Positions 2,408-48,231 of a DNA stretch of 64,000 bases are shown in pieces. Within the stretch, counting starts at the first letter, position 1, and every line of letters begins with the position of its first letter. The stretch is from an uncultured Gammaproteobacteria bacterium (GTDB taxonomy: Bacteria; Patescibacteriota; Microgenomatia; Daviesbacterales; UBA10151), in NCBI GenBank assembly GCA_964415615.1, contig CAYQAW010000006.1:495-64494 (forward strand). The letters are read 5' to 3'. The notes beneath the pieces are model-generated. The model was given only the letters and a program-made list of their open reading frames with translations, was not told the DNA's origin and ran no database searches. Made by a program: the position numbers and the translations under genes.

Positions 2408-3898
2408 TTACCCTAAGCTGTGGCGGAAGAGGGCTGCTTGGACTATTTCTTCTTGAGGATCTTGTTTTTTATCTATTTTTTCAATAATTTTTTCTACTAA
2501 TTGGGCATGTTGTTTTTCTTCCTTGGTTTTTGGCCCTAATTTCTCTCCTAAATATTTTTCTATTTCCTTAATATCCTGTTCATTTTCTGGAATACCTAGG
2601 TAAGCTAAACTTTCTTTTCTAAAATATCTTCCAGCAAATTGTAAAGCTGGTTTTAACTGCTGGTAGAGCTCTTCTATAAACTTTAATTTTCCTTCTTCTC
2701 TGGCTTTTTTCAGTCCCCTTCCTGTGCCTATTAACTCAGGTGGGATACCTAATGAGTAACAACTGGCAGTAAAGCCAATAGCCCTTGGTAATTTTGTTTC
2801 CCCTACTTGTCTGGAATAACCAAACAAACCAATATGCTGCATTCTTTCCCTTCTTTGAGGAATATGCTCAGCAACCTTTGCTATATATGGAGCCAGTTTT
2901 TCTACAGCTTGTTTGTAAGGAGTTTCAAACCAAGGAATTACTTGCTGGATCTTTGCTAGATAATCTTCTGGAAGTAATTGAGTTTTGATCTTAGTAACAC
3001 TTTCCTGAATTTTTTTAATAGCAGCTTTAACATCTTTTAATGGATAATCATACCTAAATGAAGATTGGACAACTAAAGTTTTGATACCAGCAAACTCTTT
3101 AATAAAAGCCTCTGTTGCCTTTGGTGTTAACCCTCCTCTAAAAGGTAGGGCTCCCGGGGCAATAATTGGATAGGTAGGAATTCCAGTTTCTTTAGAAAAT
3201 TTGGCATACTCAGAAAGAGCCCATTTAATAGCCAGAGTAGTTGGGACAATACCAGAATTTAAAGCTGGATCAGACCTGGCACAAAAAGGCCTGATATAAG
3301 CAGGCTCTCCAAAATATTTAACATACTTTTGAGCATATTTTCTAACTATTTGGCCTGATTTTAAAATAGTTTGCACCATTTCAAAAATAGGTATTACTTC
3401 AACAGTTTTTTTGCTAAAACCACTGGGTCCAAAAGAATAATCTGCAGCTTTGGCAAATCTGCCAAAATTCTTTTGCAGGGTAATCAACTCATCTGCTCCT
3501 TCTGTCATAGGTAAAATAACTTCAAAAAGAGGGGTGGTGGGAAAGCCTGCACTATGGGCAAGTTGTTGCCCGGATAAAATAACCATGAAAGCCCTGCCTA
3601 ATCTATAACCTGGTTCTACTCTGGGATTAGGGACTCTAAATGTTAAAAATACATCCTGTCCTAATAATTTTTTCTGGAAAAAATCTGTGTATCTGGAAAG
3701 TAATCTTTCTGTAACTCCCTCATCTACTAATTTGCCTTCCCAGTCCCACATTACTTCATCACCACCTAGTTCTGAAAACATTAAAAAACATTCCTTTAGT
3801 TCATCATGAGTTTTTATTAGTTCTCTTTTGTGCCAAAAAGGCTGAGAAGCATGATCAGGATGTTGGGAAAACATCACAGAGGGGATTTTTCGAGCCAT
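2408..3898 (-). CDS. ppcA: Phosphoenolpyruvate carboxylase, archaeal type
   Basis: N-terminus MARKIPSVMFSQHPDH matches the archaeal-type PEPC signature MxxIPRxMSTQHPDN; ~500 aa. Confidence 0.7.
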   Translation of the reverse strand: MARKIPSVMFSQHPDHASQPFWHKRELIKTHDELKECFLMFSELGGDEVMWDWEGKLVDEGVTERLLSRYTDFFQKKLLGQDVFLTFRVPNPRVEPGYRLGRAFMVILSGQQLAHSAGFPTTPLFEVILPMTEGADELITLQKNFGRFAKAADYSFGPSGFSKKTVEVIPIFEMVQTILKSGQIVRKYAQKYVKYFGEPAYIRPFCARSDPALNSGIVPTTLAIKWALSEYAKFSKETGIPTYPIIAPGALPFRGGLTPKATEAFIKEFAGIKTLVVQSSFRYDYPLKDVKAAIKKIQESVTKIKTQLLPEDYLAKIQQVIPWFETPYKQAVEKLAPYIAKVAEHIPQRRERMQHIGLFGYSRQVGETKLPRAIGFTASCYSLGIPPELIGTGRGLKKAREEGKLKFIEELYQQLKPALQFAGRYFRKESLAYLGIPENEQDIKEIEKYLGEKLGPKTKEEKQHAQLVEKIIEKIDKKQDPQEEIVQAALFRHSLG

Positions 3899-4134
3899 AG
3901 CTTTTGTTTAGTTTGCAAGATTTAACTCAAAATTTCAAGATAGTAGTTTTTTATGTTAAAATACTTAAAGCAAAAATGCCGCAGTAGCCAAGGTAGTCAA
4001 GGCGGACGCCTGAAGAGCGTTTTATACGTGTGCAACTCATGTCTGCGGCACACATTTTAATTTTGGGTGCCTTGTTTTAGCGAAGCAGAATTAGAAAGAT
4101 AGGTTTTAGTTAAAGGTGGATTGCTTATATTAAT

Positions 4135-4206
4135 GCGGGAGTAACTCAGTGGTAGAGTGCCTCGTTGCCAACGAGGATGTCGGGGGTTCAAGTCCCCTCT
4201 CCCGCT
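4135..4206 (+). tRNA. tRNA-Gly (anticodon GCC)
   Basis: Cloverleaf folded by hand: acceptor GCGGGAG/CTCCCGC, anticodon stem CCTCG/CGAGG with loop TTGCCAA, T-arm GGGGG-TTCAAGT-CCCCT; no encoded CCA. Confidence 0.9.
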
Positions 4207-4261
4207 CAAAAATCTTTGATTTTTGAGCTCGTTTACGAAAAAGCTCGAACTCTTTTCCAAT

Positions 4262-4470
4262 CGTAACGGTAGGCGGCGGCTCGCCTTTGCCGCCGCCCTC
4301 TATCTGCTCGGCTTTCGGCCGAAGCTCTAAAAACTGTCGGCTCGAACTCCACCAGAGGCGGACAAAAAACGCGAAAATTTTTAAAGAACTTTTTTTATAA
4401 ACTCAAATGGCCGCTCTGGTTGTAACCAAATCCTTGCGAATCTGTCCAAAGCGGCCATTAAAAAACGCAA
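4262..4470. other. GC-rich hairpin-dense intergenic segment (candidate structured RNA or terminator cluster)
   Basis: Perfect 9-bp hairpin GGCGGCGGC...GCCGCCGCC, a 10-bp inverted repeat AATGGCCGCT...AGCGGCCATT and nested small hairpins, in an AT-rich intergenic context. Confidence 0.25.
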
Positions 4471-7319: not shown

Positions 7320-7551
7320 TTGTAAAAGATGAGACATCTCGAGTGCTTCCAACTTTTCTAATCTATATAATAAGGGAGTAAAAAAGTTTTCGTGCTGGGT
7401 GGGTTGGGGCAAGAAAACATTAAATTGTTTTTGTGTTCCTGTCCCGCTTTGCGGGACTATAATAAATAAAAATCGCGCGCATTCTGTCTTTCTGTCCTAG
7501 CAAAAAATACATAGAGCGAGGCTCGCCCTTCGGGCGGCCCGCTCCCAATCC

Positions 7552-7797
7552 ATGTATTATACTTACATTCTCCAGAGTTCGAAGGACGATAGAACCTATG
7601 TAGGCTATACAAATAATATAGATAATCGTCTCAATCTCCATAATTCTGGTAGAGTTAAAGCAACTAAATATAGAATGCCATTTAAGTTATTATTCTTTGA
7701 GAAATTTCAATCCGAACAAGAAGCTAAGAAACGAGAACTTTGGTGGAAAAGTGGCGCTGGAAGGAGAAAACTTAAGGAATATTTTACTAAAAGATGA
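7552..7797 (+). CDS. GIY-YIG nuclease superfamily small protein (copy 1)
   Basis: 81 aa: MYYTYIL...YVGYTNN...R...HN; ~50% identical to the 46812 copy. Confidence 0.85.
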   Translation: MYYTYILQSSKDDRTYVGYTNNIDNRLNLHNSGRVKATKYRMPFKLLFFEKFQSEQEAKKRELWWKSGAGRRKLKEYFTKR

Positions 7798-7928
7798 AAT
7801 GATCCTTACCCGCTCCATCAGATTTTTATCGAACTAATAAATTTTAGCTTCGGAAAGTTGCTAAATTTTGTCTAAATTTAACCCTAAAAACAAGAACCCA
7901 TACGGGAATCGAACTAGCCTTAGTTTAG

Positions 7929-9599: not shown

Positions 9600-9770
9600 C
9601 TACACCGAATGATCCTTGTGCCGCCAAAGGCGAGCCTCGTTTATTCAGACGGGGTGAAAGTATCCTTCGACTCGCTGCGCTCGCTCAGGACTTAGCCTTA
9701 CTGTTAGGGAGCGAATGGCAGAATACTTTTTGTAGATTTGCCTAGGCCACAGGGATCGATTTTCTGATAT
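9600..9770. other. GC-rich structured intergenic segment (candidate small RNA)
   Basis: Locally GC-rich (gccaaaggcgagcctcg...gactcgctgcgctcgctcagg) in an AT-rich spacer; shares the CGAGCCTCG near-palindrome with 7512 and 56897. Confidence 0.2.
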
Positions 9771-10340: not shown

Positions 10341-10411
10341 TGCGGGATAGTGTAATGGTAGCACAGGGGACTTTGGATCCCTTAATCATGGTCCGAATCC
10401 ATGTCCCGCAA
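10341..10411 (+). tRNA. tRNA-Gln (anticodon UUG)
   Basis: Acceptor TGCGGGA/TCCCGCA, anticodon stem GGGGA/TCCCT with loop CTTTGGA, T-arm CATGG-TCCGAAT-CCATG. Confidence 0.85.
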
Positions 10412-10489
10412 CTTTTACAAAAATATATAATTACTACCTCCAAGGTCTGAAGCAATAAAAAGAGTTATATTTCTGGTATAGTAGAGTTA

Positions 10490-44958: not shown

Positions 44959-46695
44959 TTATTTAGGATAGCACAAATCGTTTAAAGTTTCTTCTAGGAT
45001 TTTAGCCATCTGGGGAGTAAATTTTACTCCATCCCGAATTCCTCTATAAGAAACTACCTTAACTCCCATTTTTTCCAACTCAGCTTTTCTTTCATTGAAT
45101 TGGGTCTCATTAGAGCTTGCTCCATCAGAAAATACTAATATTAACTTTAAGATATCCCGTTCCAGAACTCTTTTTAAATAACCGGGTTCTTGTAACTCTC
45201 TTGCTTTCATTTCCTCAATAATCTGGCCTAAACCAATATAATCCTCAGTTGCGCTTCCTGAACAATCATTTAAAGCTTTAAAAACTTCTACTCTTTGCTT
45301 TTCTGTTAACTGAGCTGATAAGGGTTTGATGATCACATTTTGCTTACTTCCTCCGAATGATCGGACCTCAGATAAAGCTGCTAACTGCGGATTTAGCATA
45401 TTATGCCTTACCTCAGGTAAATTCATAAATTCTGCAAGGCTTTCCATAAGGAGTATTGCTGCTCTTCTTTGCTCTTCTTTTTTCCCACCTATATCCATAG
45501 AACCGCTTCTGTCAAACAGTCCTGTGGCTTCCCAAACCCTGGGAACAATCTTTTTAATAATCCTTCCTTCAAAATCCATAAACACTGTTGGATCAACCAC
45601 TCCTGCATCAAAACTTTCCTGGGCTATAGCAGCTAGTCCTGGAGCAATCATTACACCTTCATCTTTAAACCCCACCAGTTTTCTTTTGGGAGTTAAGCGT
45701 TCAGCTATAATCCTTCTGTATTGTTGTCTGTTCGGTTCGATGTAAGGCTCAATTTTTTGATATTCTTTTTTATACTCCAAGGAATCCTGTAAGCTTACTT
45801 TATTCTCTTTTTCGTAGGCAGCTTGCTGCCTTTCAGCTTGGGTGGGGCCTCCTTGTTCTCCTTTAGCTTGTTGCTGTTGTTCCTCATTTAAAGGTTGGGG
45901 ATTATTCTGGTCATATTCTTGATAAAAGCTCTTAAATGGGGCCTCTTCATCTCCAGATGTTGCTTGTCCTTCTTGTTGTCCTTCTTGAGGTTGTTCTTTT
46001 GACTCCTGCTTATCCTCTTCAAATAATTTTTCTATTACAGGATCTATAAATTTTTCAAATAATTTTAGCTTTTTATCATAAGGCAATTTAGGATCTGTAA
46101 CTATTTCTAAAATATCGCGCTCTCTTCCACCTCGTTTAAAATGTCTCAAAGCATTAATTTCTTCAGCAACAATAGGATCAACTATAGATTGCTCACCAAC
46201 AACACCTTCACGAAGTATGGCATAAGGAAATTGTAGGTGCTTAGGAAATCTTGTTAAATCTTGGTCAGGAAAAAGTTTATCTTTATATAAGTTAACTGCC
46301 TCACCTCGGAGCGATGGAAGGTCTGTCAAAACTCTTCTGTCATCAGCTAAATCCCTAAGACAATTATCTGTAAGTCTTATTCTTTGTTTTTTTTCCCTTA
46401 GGGCTTTTCTTTCTTGATAAAGTTGCATCCCACTATCTACAGACAAAAGCTGACCTAATTCTTTAACATGATCAAGTTCATGAGCTGTAGCAAATTGTGA
46501 TTGAGCTCTGCTATAACCCTGTTCTGTAAAAAAGTTCAGGTCATAGGTTCCCTGACCAGTTTCTGGATCCACTCCCCAGCCTGATCCTGGACTAAAATTT
46601 ACTCCTAACCCTTGGGAATAATCCTGGATAAATTTTTGTTCCCTGGTAAAAAAATCTTCAGGGCTTCCTGCTCCTGCATCTTCACTAGTAGTCAT
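44959..46695 (-). CDS. von Willebrand factor A domain protein with a long acidic/Q-rich linker
   Basis: MIDAS-like DRSGSM...SDG near the C-terminus; HELDH near the N-terminus. Confidence 0.55.
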   Translation of the reverse strand: MTTSEDAGAGSPEDFFTREQKFIQDYSQGLGVNFSPGSGWGVDPETGQGTYDLNFFTEQGYSRAQSQFATAHELDHVKELGQLLSVDSGMQLYQERKALREKKQRIRLTDNCLRDLADDRRVLTDLPSLRGEAVNLYKDKLFPDQDLTRFPKHLQFPYAILREGVVGEQSIVDPIVAEEINALRHFKRGGRERDILEIVTDPKLPYDKKLKLFEKFIDPVIEKLFEEDKQESKEQPQEGQQEGQATSGDEEAPFKSFYQEYDQNNPQPLNEEQQQQAKGEQGGPTQAERQQAAYEKENKVSLQDSLEYKKEYQKIEPYIEPNRQQYRRIIAERLTPKRKLVGFKDEGVMIAPGLAAIAQESFDAGVVDPTVFMDFEGRIIKKIVPRVWEATGLFDRSGSMDIGGKKEEQRRAAILLMESLAEFMNLPEVRHNMLNPQLAALSEVRSFGGSKQNVIIKPLSAQLTEKQRVEVFKALNDCSGSATEDYIGLGQIIEEMKARELQEPGYLKRVLERDILKLILVFSDGASSNETQFNERKAELEKMGVKVVSYRGIRDGVKFTPQMAKILEETLNDLCYPK

Positions 46696-46757
46696 AAATA
46701 TACTTTAATTACTTTCCTTGAAATCTGCAAGTGATTTTAGGTAGAATATACAAATAT

Positions 46758-46810
46758 GCGGGTGTAATTCACCGGTAGAATGGTCGCCTTAGGCGACACA
46801 TAAGGGGTCC
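46758..46810 (+). pseudogene. Truncated tRNA-like 5' fragment (duplicate of the tRNA-Gly(UCC) 5' end)
   Basis: 28-nt exact repeat atgcgggtgtaattcaccggtagaatg of 47045-47072 plus a second 10-nt repeat taaggggtcc; the anticodon arm is non-canonical and there is no 3' half. Confidence 0.45.
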
Positions 46811-46811
46811 A

Positions 46812-47057
46812 ATGTATTATGTCTATGTACTAAAGAGTCTAAAAAATGGTAGATTCTATACTGGATCTACTGATAATGTAGATCGACGGTTTAATGAACA
46901 TAACAGCGGAGGATCAAAATATACAAGACTGACCAAGCCGTTTGAACTGGTTTATAAGGAAGAATTTAAGACAAGAAGTGAGGCGTGTCAAAGAGAATTA
47001 TTTTTTAAGTCTGGGAAGGGAAGAGATTTATTAAAAAACTTATTAATGCGGGTGTAA
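46812..47057 (+). CDS. GIY-YIG nuclease superfamily small protein (copy 2); stop codon lies inside tRNA-Gly(UCC)
   Basis: MYYVYVL...YTGSTDNVDRRFNEHNSG; the TAA stop at 47055-47057 is at tRNA positions 8-10. Confidence 0.85.
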   Translation: MYYVYVLKSLKNGRFYTGSTDNVDRRFNEHNSGGSKYTRLTKPFELVYKEEFKTRSEACQRELFFKSGKGRDLLKNLLMRV

Positions 47058-47119
47058 TTCACCGGTAGAATGCCACTTTTCCAAAGTGGACGTAAGGGGT
47101 CCGACTCCCCTCACCCGCT
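47048..47119 (+). tRNA. tRNA-Gly (anticodon UCC)
   Basis: Acceptor GCGGGTG/CACCCGC, anticodon stem CCACT/AGTGG with loop TTTCCAA, T-arm AGGGG-TCCGACT-CCCCT. Confidence 0.85.
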
Positions 47120-47212
47120 CAGAGGATGTTTAGATTGTTAGGACAGACTAATCTATAACTTCAAGGTGATTAATTTTTCCAGATATTCTGGTACAAGAAT
47201 AAAAATGAAATT

Positions 47213-47479
47213 CTAGTAGTCTTTTCTGTCTCTTATCCTGCCATTTGCTCCATGTATAAATAAAGCAGTTCCTTTGTTTTGCGAAACTGATCTTCCATAG
47301 TTTTCGGCTTCTTTTTGAGTACTAAATATTTGACTTGCCCTTGTAGAACCAGCACGTTTCACAATCCAGGAACCATCACGAGGTAAAACATGATGGCTTT
47401 GCATGCCTCTTTCGACTGCATGACGGTATTCTTTGACTTGGGGGTTCATTTGGTTAGTTTTGTACGGTATTTTCTTCAT
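47213..47479 (-). CDS. DUF2188 family protein
   Basis: HVLPRDGSWIVKRAGSTRAS...GTALFIHGANGRIRDRKDY matches the DUF2188 pattern. Confidence 0.65.
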   Translation of the reverse strand: MKKIPYKTNQMNPQVKEYRHAVERGMQSHHVLPRDGSWIVKRAGSTRASQIFSTQKEAENYGRSVSQNKGTALFIHGANGRIRDRKDY

Positions 47480-48152: not shown

Positions 48153-48231
48153 TTCCTCACCCGCTCTTATAATCCTGAGAGAAATCGAAGGACAGACGGG
48201 GAAGTGTCACCAGAAAAGTCACAAACTCAAA

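Follow-up and report, generated by a model that had tools for sequence, protein, structure and literature searches.

A minimal GIY-YIG gene, preceded by a palindrome-bearing partial tRNA copy, occupies a tRNA-Gly(UCC) gene and is probably part of a homing-type selfish cassette

Our subject is an 81-codon GIY-YIG gene, and the tRNA-Gly(UCC) gene into which its 3' end runs, within a 64-kb stretch of contig CAYQAW010000006.1 (referred to here as 'the window', meaning all 64,000 nucleotides analysed). The locus was surveyed between positions 46700 and 47130, with Rfam searched at E<=10 over 46600–47300, and reading from left to right we see the following features:

46718..46747, forward strand: candidate sigma-70-like promoter of the tRNA-Gly(UCC) unit, TTGAAA-18 nt-TAGAAT (consensus scan, 10/12)
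46756..46782, forward strand: first copy of an exact 27-nt direct repeat, forming the 5' end of a pseudo-tRNA leader
46783..46797, no strand assigned: element-specific palindrome GTCGCC-TTA-GGCGAC (GTCGCCTTAGGCGAC) in place of the 17-nt anticodon arm (sequence comparison)
46798..46810, forward strand: first copy of a second direct repeat, covering the variable loop, the T-stem 5' strand and three T-loop bases (12/13 match to 47090–47102)
46812..47057, forward strand: gene for an 81-aa minimal GIY-YIG nuclease of predicted Slx1/UPF0213 type (Pfam PF01541, profile, fold model)
47046..47072, forward strand: second copy of the exact repeat, covering the 3' end of the gene and tRNA positions 1–25
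47048..47120, forward strand: intact tRNA-Gly(UCC) (ARAGORN; Rfam tRNA 56.7 bits versus a gathering score of 29)
47090..47102, forward strand: second copy of the second repeat, within the real tRNA (variable loop, T-stem 5' strand, start of the T-loop; 12/13 match)

The main repeat (ATGCGGGTGTAATTCACCGGTAGAATG) is found at 46756–46782 and again at 47046–47072 with 100% identity; an exact 27-mer occurring twice within 300 nt is not a matter of chance. A preliminary description of this DNA had recognised the exact repeat, overcounting it by one at 28 nt, as well as a second repeat of 10 nt, which we find extends to 13 nt with one mismatch (ACATAAGGGGTCC at 46798–46810 versus ACGTAAGGGGTCC at 47090–47102). 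Within the upstream copy of the main repeat, 46758–46782 (GCGGGTGTAATTCACCGGTAGAATG) reproduces tRNA positions 1–25, i.e. the acceptor 5' strand and D-arm, and agrees with the real tRNA at 25/25 bases. A single base separates the end of the second repeat at 46810 from the ATG of the open reading frame (ORF) at 46812, whilst at its other end the last three sense codons and the stop of the ORF overlap tRNA-Gly(UCC). Both the completeness of this tRNA and the origin of the stop were correctly described beforehand, the TAA at 47055–47057 being tRNA positions 8–10.

The fragment upstream of the ORF (46758–46810) spans tRNA position 1 into the T-loop and is without the T-stem 3' strand and the acceptor 3' strand—the missing 3' half that was reported earlier. 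Neither ARAGORN nor Rfam (even at E<=10) calls it as a tRNA, which answers the question, raised at the outset, of whether it might be an independent one; across the locus Rfam returned the real tRNA and chance-level matches alone, the leader matching no known RNA family. The fragment had also been credited with a non-canonical anticodon arm; the fragment is there, but the 'arm' is a conserved, element-specific palindrome rather than a decayed version of the original (see below). When folded, the leader (46758–46811) forms the palindrome hairpin together with a weak 5' stem (z = -2.1), with no sign in this folding of a sequestered ribosome-binding site. Inside the first copy of the second repeat, TAAGGGGT (46801–46808) ends 3 nt 5' of the ATG and is likely, from its sequence and position, to be the Shine-Dalgarno sequence; G-rich T-stem strands lie 2–15 nt 5' of the ATG in other loci.

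The product of the ORF is a GIY-YIG domain alone, with no auxiliary domains across the whole 81 aa; it matches Pfam PF01541 at E 1.9e-18 (67 bits, cutoff 22.6), bearing out the earlier report of an 81-aa GIY-YIG gene between tRNA fragment and tRNA. With a profile built from an alignment of 42 homologs, one of them a paralog at 7552–7797 of the window, the best matches in the PDB are 1zg2 (E 1.7e-14) and 1ywl (E 3.9e-13), nuclear magnetic resonance structures of the UPF0213 proteins BH0048 and EF2693, followed by Slx1 (E 7.7e-5) and, weakly, I-TevI (E 5.7e-3). An AlphaFold2 model (pLDDT 95.1) has an E-E-H-E-H-H topology, combining a three-stranded sheet with helices, and in Foldseek this model retrieves 1zg2, 1ywl and Slx1 with template-modelling (TM) scores of 0.65–0.71 (~0.70 for the nuclease domains of Slx1), I-TevI scoring 0.54. 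Residues Y5, Y16, G18, R26, H30 and E62 are invariant in the 42 homologs, and we take these to be the equivalents of the catalytic residues of I-TevI and UvrC; after E62, no Asn is found among the invariant or nearly invariant columns. A conserved C-terminal Asn marks the UvrC/I-TevI lineage (PMC1564403); the UPF0213/COG2827 proteins (1zg2, 1ywl) and eukaryotic Slx1, our best sequence and fold matches, are minimal domains without it, as is the window protein. On the combined evidence of profile, motif and fold, we assign the protein to the Slx1/UPF0213 (COG2827) branch of the GIY-YIG superfamily, with a predicted nuclease activity. Woesebacteria, Levybacteria, Daviesbacteria and other Patescibacteria supply its nearest homologs, which places the host of the window in the candidate phyla radiation (CPR), probably among the Microgenomates. 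An exact-sequence lookup of the product returned no record and a PADLOC scan nothing meaningful; NCBIfam gave a weak, sub-threshold match to grpIintron_endo (E 5e-4, 20 bits versus a cutoff of 56).

To see the same tRNA gene elsewhere, metagenomes were scanned with the anticodon and T region of tRNA-Gly(UCC), which returned 23 contigs (contigs and loci outside the window are designated here by L-numbers). The 73-nt tRNA is identical in most of those with a full-length copy; a few bases of the acceptor or D-arm differ in L094, L098, L100, L103, L106 and L107, and one T-loop base differs in L111. A GIY-YIG match is absent anywhere in 22 of the 23, and 19 of these ORF-less contigs show no tRNA-derived repeat in the 120 nt upstream of the tRNA; repeat-free empty sites, suggested at the start as something to look for, therefore exist. 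Two contigs are uninformative as empty sites, L090 starting at the tRNA and L101 having ~21 nt upstream of it. The only other filled contig, L091, is the closest relative of the window at the DNA level: its GIY-YIG ORF has 85% amino acid identity to ours and follows a leader of the same make-up (25/25 bases, the palindrome GTCGCCTAGGCGAC, then 13/13 bases), and the ORF ends in a TAG of its own, 2 nt before the tRNA. In L095, L097 and L110 the gene found upstream in L091 is present and the cassette absent.

The empty contig L099 has both its promoter (TTCCTTGAAAT..GCAAGT..TTTTATGTAGAATA) and its 3' flank (GTTTAGATTGTT) in common with the window, the 3' flank of the window being the native one. 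L091 has retained this promoter motif as well. The distance from the -10 box to GCGGG is 9–10 nt in filled (window, L091) and empty (L099) alleles alike, which indicates that the promoter-proximal 5' segment of the tRNA sits in its original place and that ~290 bp have been added downstream. Compared with empty alleles, this insert consists of the copy of tRNA positions 1–25, the 15-bp palindrome, the copy of the variable loop and T-stem 5' strand, and the 81-codon ORF. With filled and empty alleles of the same tRNA at hand, the insert thus shows presence/absence variation. L109 (oriented 3530–3580) carries an ORF-less footprint: a 12-nt copy of the tRNA start (GCGGGTGTAATT), a palindrome (TCAGCCAAAGGCTGA), 17 nt and then an intact tRNA-Gly(UCC), which by its sequence would be either a deleted cassette or a palindrome-only insertion. 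The gene upstream of the locus, for a 578-aa VWA-like protein, offered a second route through synteny; its relatives are at most 57% identical and none has an adjacent tRNA, so no orthologous empty site was found in this way. The sole exact match to the region of this neighbour is L081, an independent 2.7-kb short-read Logan contig (SRR4343430) from the same organism, which ends 86 nt upstream of the neighbouring gene, by our reckoning at the end of repeat copy 1. A genuine repeat is expected to break a short-read assembly; the end of L081 is consistent with a real repeat in a locus that is hard to assemble.

Several trivial explanations have to be set against these alleles: an artefact of assembly, an island brought in by an integrase and flanked by its attachment (att) repeats, or a tRNA with a group I intron. 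Integrated islands typically leave direct repeats at tRNA genes, and group I introns commonly carry GIY-YIG genes, a connection to which the sub-threshold grpIintron_endo match also points. Against an artefact, the same arrangement recurs in independent assemblies (L091 and dozens of genome loci). In islands and prophages moved by tyrosine recombinases, the target tRNA gene is regenerated by a carried copy, leaving direct repeats of tRNA sequence at the flanks; the window insert is like them in both respects, but such islands have a recombinase, run to kilobases and duplicate the 3' part of the tRNA, whereas we see ~290 bp without a recombinase and a repeat made of tRNA positions 1–25. The ORFs of at least 30 aa in the insert are the GIY-YIG gene and one that lies wholly inside it in another frame. 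As for an intron, nothing interrupts the real tRNA, the insertion lies outside the anticodon loop and Rfam finds no intron family over the searched interval. We consider these trivial explanations effectively refuted and give them next to no probability. A target-site duplication by staggered cutting was also rejected, because the stretch that lies between the two repeats is not itself repeated: it is the palindrome in one copy and the anticodon arm in its counterpart.

The arrangement is far from confined to one tRNA. A scan of one genome per GTDB species gave at least 562 relatives, and the best 80 loci were analysed. A same-strand tRNA lies within 100 nt of the ORF at 62 of these 80 (39 downstream, 26 upstream), compared with a chance expectation of roughly 1% at an estimated ~45 tRNAs per Mb; the further copies beside tRNAs that the preliminary description proposed searching for are thus plentiful, and adjoin many tRNA species. 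At least 14 specificities are represented (Val, Ala, Gly, Ile, Phe, Arg, Cys, Asn, Gln, Pro, Tyr, Ser, Thr and Met), in hosts that include Patescibacteria, Bacteroidota, Ignavibacteria (Ignavibacteriota), Planctomycetota, Omnitrophota, Acidobacteriota and Dehalococcoidia, and the repeats flanking the ORF match whichever tRNA adjoins. In 14 of the 80 loci the stop codon falls exactly on tRNA positions 8–10; a stop inside the tRNA is frequent and not obligatory. As judged by sequence comparison, our locus belongs to a large family of cassettes that occupy many different tRNA genes in several phyla.

Three layouts can be told apart. In type 1 (36 loci, the window included) a 5' pseudo-piece is followed by the ORF and the real tRNA, with -10-like boxes, read by eye, 8–15 nt 5' of the pseudo-piece in most CPR loci. 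Type 2 (23 loci) is the mirror image: the real tRNA, the ORF and then a 3' pseudo-piece comprising the D-stem 3' strand, the palindrome, the T-arm and the acceptor 3' strand; here the ORF often stops within the pseudo-piece, as with the TGA in the palindrome loop of L026 or the TAG in the D-loop of L057 and L059. Finally, six of the type 1 loci are nested, with palindrome-bearing pieces on both sides of the ORF and tRNA. The preliminary description had proposed a small GIY-YIG homing or mobile element that targets the 5' portion of a tRNA gene and regenerates it; the insertion is well supported, but with ~23 of 80 loci mirrored and six bearing pseudo-pieces on both sides, a preference for the 5' portion is not established.

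The position and number of copies vary at several of these loci. L026 has two copies, one of which runs into tRNA-Phe, the other lying 3' of tRNA-Gly(GCC), of which a 32-nt stretch is repeated after the ORF. Where a Leu-Val-Phe-Gly array is syntenic between genomes, L003 has the cassette in front of Val(UAC), but L010 and L011 have it in front of Gly(GCC); between Phe and Gly it is absent in L003 and in the window (3978–4207). Some 65 nt downstream of the tRNA-Gly(GCC) of the window, at 4272–4297, we also note a 9-bp GC stem (GGCGGCGGC ... GCCGCCGCC) with the loop TCGCCTTT. Copies within one genome are usually 45–76% identical, some being truncated (L031, L043, L047) and some tandemly amplified (L064). 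The last of these, a 666-bp contig of Melioribacter sp. with a coverage of 753, consists of tRNA-Cys followed by tandem near-identical GIY-YIG units, each ending in a palindrome-bearing 3' piece of tRNA-Cys; the coverage suggests many copies in that genome. Eight distant homologs were found in viral contigs and served as an internal control: a tRNA adjoins one of the eight, and an origin in phages is not supported.

The protein is under purifying selection, as indicated by a ratio of nonsynonymous to synonymous substitution (dN/dS) of 0.12 at dS 0.63 between the ORFs of the window and L091. Despite this dS, the pseudo-piece differs from the tRNA at 0–1 of 38 nt in the two loci, where ~10 differences would be expected (P ~1e-4 for one or none, by a back-of-envelope calculation); such near-identity points to selection, to gene conversion with the neighbouring tRNA, or to recent independent insertions. 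These observations bear on a second explanation, in which the gene benefits its host: the GIY-YIG protein would act on tRNA, or in DNA repair at heavily transcribed tRNA genes, and be co-transcribed with them, the tRNA-like leader being a mimic for translational autoregulation as in the thrS leader. Strong purifying selection, a leader that stays identical to the tRNA (25/25 and 12–13/13) at dS 0.63 and a ribosome-binding site placed within the mimic would all fit, as would the view of bacterial standalone Slx1-like domains as vertically inherited, together with a fusion to a TrmH-like tRNA methyltransferase from which a role with RNA has been suggested (PMC1564403). On the other side, the ORF is absent from 22 of the 23 contigs with the same tRNA, varies in position among syntenic tRNA arrays, occurs as several diverged, truncated and tandemly amplified copies per genome, and exists as orphans (e.g. 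7552–7797); nor would a housekeeping factor call for part of a different tRNA to be copied wherever it occurs. We think a host-beneficial gene very unlikely.

What we observe directly at these loci is the insertion, its composition, its recurrence and the selection on its protein. The reading we favour, and believe to be probably correct, is that of a tRNA-Gly(UCC) gene occupied by a homing-type selfish cassette, with cleavage and mobility as its putative activities. Judging by the layout, the tRNA's own promoter would transcribe leader, ORF and tRNA as a single RNA; the unpaired G-rich strand of the T-stem (TAAGGGGT here, GGAGG-like in several other loci) would serve as the ribosome-binding site; and the conserved U8-A9-R10 of the tRNA would provide the stop. 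RNase P would then free a normal tRNA, so that the host keeps its tRNA, and the same cut would remove the stop of the ORF to leave a non-stop mRNA, a plausible brake on nuclease levels. The cassette would spread in the manner of a free-standing homing endonuclease gene, the nuclease breaking an unoccupied tRNA gene and repair copying the cassette from an occupied allele, by analogy with SegB and with mitochondrial mobile ORFs; homology for the repair would be provided on the left by the duplicated 5' segment of the tRNA and on the right by the real tRNA. Being invariant across diverged genomes, tRNA genes would suit this role. Two features of homing genes are indeed found: presence/absence at the site, and a sporadic distribution with degenerate copies (L031, L043, L047, L109 and the orphan at 7552).

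Both of the systems just named deserve a closer comparison. SegB is a protein of ~220 aa in which a DNA-binding region is present. It is a GIY-YIG homing enzyme encoded within a tRNA cluster of T4, and like the window cassette represents a GIY-YIG gene among tRNA genes whose presence varies among related genomes; its recognition site holds a conserved T-arm motif, and through break-induced gene conversion it propagates both its own gene and the tRNA genes next to it (PMC2330249). Unlike the cassette, it belongs to the I-TevI/UvrC-like branch and is intergenic, without partial tRNA duplication, palindrome or overlap with a tRNA; moreover SegB is a phage gene, whereas the gene of the window is cellular (Patescibacteria and other phyla), of 81 aa and Slx1-like. 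The mobile ORFs (mORFs) of fungal mitochondria (Allomyces atp6; Glomus atp6/atp9/cox2/nad3) duplicate the end of the gene that they invade: an essential gene is entered by a free-standing ORF for an endonuclease, which carries a substitute for the end of that gene, the native end being left as a nearby remnant and the gene remaining functional, and the ORF may be in phase with the host gene and without a stop of its own (PMC3630166). Type 2 bacterial loci have this same topology and type 1 loci its mirror image. There are also differences: mORFs have protein-coding hosts, full-size LAGLIDADG or GIY-YIG enzymes and a remnant without a conserved palindrome (PMC3630166), and the remnant in the window is the 5' part, still attached to its promoter.

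The palindrome is the most distinctive part of the cassette. In CPR loci it comprises 14–15 bp of the form GTCGCC-N2-3-GGCGAC and exactly replaces the 17-nt anticodon arm of the partial copy; the exact pattern is found in 18 of the 80 loci, and in 56 the ORF adjoins a partial tRNA copy that contains such a palindrome. Its core, CGCC-N2-5-GGCG, occurs within 200 nt of the ORF at 56 of 80 loci, with a density there of 2.59 per kb versus 0.16 per kb elsewhere in the loci (a 16.5-fold enrichment). Outside the core, two further stem pairs are complementary in 76 of 83 copies (~6% by chance) through four compensating variants, namely GT..AC (31), TC..GA (24), CC..GG (12) and TG..CA (4). Loops are mostly TNA, GC or TA: of ~55 loops with three bases 33 read TNA, and of 16 loops with two bases 15 are self-complementary. 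With symmetry that often extends to its centre, the element fits a DNA palindrome (a dimer site or cruciform) better, we infer, than an RNA hairpin. An odd anticodon loop, such as that of a UUA suppressor, was considered and rejected, the loop varying in length and sequence (TTA, TAA, TGA, GC, TA) and the fragment being without an acceptor 3' strand. The palindrome probably breaks up a 55-nt direct repeat through which the cassette would otherwise be lost, deprives the partial copy of its tRNA identity, and/or constitutes the binding site of the nuclease.

In other lineages, similar palindromes interrupt the T-loop in L054, L055 and L069, the D region in L060 and L074, and several arms of one pseudo-tRNA in L072. 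They also occur away from ORFs, in arrays of pseudo-tRNAs (L045, L059, L077) and occasionally alone (intergenic pairs in L017; L019). The arrays (L045 2410–2800, L059 2570–2860, L077 1–160) are made of tandem ORF-less pseudo-tRNAs (Cys, Pro, Asn) with periods of ~99 and 108 nt, each unit with a palindrome, and lie upstream of a real tRNA and a GIY-YIG ORF. In L019 an exact GTCGCCTAAGGCGAC palindrome is positioned at 55–69, ~10 nt after the 3' end of the 16S rRNA (..GATCACCTCCTTTCT) in the 16S-23S spacer, and hence the palindrome is not confined to tRNA copies. The window itself contains, at 9620–9634, an intergenic relative with two mismatches (GCCGCCAAAGGCGAG) upstream of a tRNA-Gln locus, with no tRNA-like flank recognised.

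Several points weigh against the homing-type reading. The 81-aa protein is without a DNA-binding module for a long target site, for which reason we describe the element as homing-like and do not place it in the Seg/I-TevI family. The occupied allele retains a complete tRNA gene and yet would have to escape the nuclease. Simple homing does not account for arrival at a new tRNA species with both flanks matching the new host, nor does it account for a conserved palindrome in the partial copy. The nested and mirror forms are not predicted by a single insertion model. Lastly, the filled and empty alleles of tRNA-Gly(UCC) that we compare belong to different uncultured genomes.

Some of these difficulties would be eased if the cassette were directed by its palindromes. 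On this account the palindromes are the ends or recognition sites of the element, and a structure- or palindrome-specific, Slx1-like nuclease cuts tRNA genes where they extrude hairpins or cruciforms and puts a palindrome-bounded cassette, perhaps along with a replacement tRNA, in the place of a tRNA arm—a process nearer to that of repetitive extragenic palindromes and their associated transposases (REP/RAYT), or to hairpin-dependent transposition, than to classical homing. Slx1, the closest solved homolog of known function, has branched DNA and stem-loops as its substrates. At six loci the ORF and tRNA stand between two palindrome-bearing pieces, those inspected sharing palindrome-centred repeats of 18–37 nt; in one of them, L013, the acceptor halves of the outer pieces are complementary to each other (GGGTCGG/CCGACCC) and unlike those of the enclosed tRNA, suggesting that a resident tRNA was split by an incoming unit of ORF plus tRNA. 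The T-loop or D-arm is replaced or interrupted in L054, L055, L069, L072, L060 and L074, solitary palindromes exist (the arrays of L045, L059 and L077, the pairs of L017, the spacer of L019), and the symmetry of the loops is not something that an RNA hairpin needs. The palindrome-directed account thus better explains the nested forms and the replacement of arms at several positions; it fits the locus of the window less well, with its one palindrome, no 3' pseudo-piece and a native 3' flank. Further against it, we know of no transposase-like chemistry for GIY-YIG domains, the solitary palindromes could be an unrelated REP-like family, and the nested forms could be secondary, arising through recombination among repeated tRNA modules. 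We hold it to be possible, if on the unlikely side.

RAYTs are HUH/Y1 enzymes, unlike GIY-YIG proteins, and we know of no REPs that replace the arms of tRNA gene copies. The likeness lies elsewhere: in REP/RAYT systems (for a survey of REP families, see PMC3733652), as with our cassettes, short palindromes rich in GC are scattered through a genome and gather near the gene of a small nuclease. Taken furthest, the palindrome and minimal Slx1-like nuclease would together be an unrecognised bacterial mobile system that reads the hairpins or cruciforms of tRNA genes, replaces their arms (anticodon, T, D) with the palindrome, duplicates the tRNA and installs its nuclease gene in the tRNA unit, a GIY-YIG counterpart of REP/RAYT. 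We offer this tentatively and think it rather improbable; were it true, a supposedly housekeeping bacterial branch of Slx1 would be a selfish lineage residing in tRNA genes across many phyla.

Returning to the homing-type reading, the element would be a homing-type selfish gene in a seemingly unreported tRNA-gene setting, with a minority chance that its palindrome-based behaviour is new in kind. The 2006 survey of the GIY-YIG superfamily classed the bacterial branch as Slx1-like, minimal, vertically inherited and not selfish, the UPF0213 proteins among them, and the parts of its text that a term search retrieves report no association with tRNA genes (PMC1564403). We found no published description of bacterial tRNA genes that harbour small GIY-YIG genes together with palindrome-substituted tRNA copies, in a literature coverage that is incomplete (most subscription journals fall outside it) and so does not amount to proof. 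If the reading is right, a very small selfish gene, with ~240 bp of sequence to call its own, has a general way to inhabit essential genes: promoter, ribosome-binding site and stop would be borrowed from the tRNA gene, whose conservation supplies a landing pad across species. The bacterial Slx1-like/UPF0213 branch, which has had no known function, would then be selfish, contrary to the view of vertical inheritance, and in Patescibacteria, Bacteroidota and others there would be an explanation both for many of the short genes annotated as 'GIY-YIG family protein' and for many pseudo-fragments of tRNAs. It would also provide a compact nuclease, possibly of structure- or palindrome-based specificity, a marker of gene flow among uncultured bacteria, and a regulatory idea in which RNase P processing strips the stop from the mRNA of the nuclease.

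The window contains a second GIY-YIG copy, with the following features:

7514..7544, forward strand: GC-rich hairpin, 8 nt 5' of the ATG of the paralog (-24 kcal/mol, z = -4.8, 0 of 200 shuffles as stable)
7552..7797, forward strand: intact orphan GIY-YIG paralog, 81 aa (Pfam E 1.9e-17, 63.7 bits; 51% identity to the first ORF)
7804..7817, forward strand: candidate tRNA-Gly 3'-end-like remnant, CCTTACCCGCTCCA, 7 nt after the stop of the paralog (11/12 match to CCTCACCCGCTC of tRNA-Gly(UCC), read by eye)

This paralog was already known from the preliminary description, where it was said to start in the same context as the first; the gene is confirmed, and the two contexts (aatccATGTATTAT versus ggtccaATGTATTAT) prove to be similar, not identical. 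It carries every residue that is invariant in the 42-homolog alignment, and ARAGORN calls no tRNA beside it. The hairpin is preceded by AGAGCG, which resembles the 3' end of a D-stem, and contains a palindrome-like CGCCC-TTC-GGGCG, whilst its end, CCCGCTCC (7538–7545), resembles the acceptor 3' strand of tRNA-Gly. From these remnants, the locus looks like an old, decayed insertion site from which the tRNA has been lost.

Two smaller observations concern the tRNA genes of the window. In tRNAs of this lineage, position 55 of the T-loop is often C in place of the near-universal U (GGTCCGACTCC, GGTCCGAATCC), as at 47048–47120 and 10341–10412 of the window and in L008, L009 and L013; this raises the question of a possible tie between C55 and nucleases that read the T-arm, as SegB does. 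Downstream of tRNA-Gly(UCC) by 1 kb, on the same strand, 48155–48166 is an exact 12-nt match (CCTCACCCGCTC) to the 3' end of that tRNA, with two reverse-strand genes in between, one for a DUF2188 protein and one for a zeta-toxin-like P-loop protein; the match could be due to chance (~0.5 such matches per window, as a rough estimate) or represent a displaced remnant of a tRNA.

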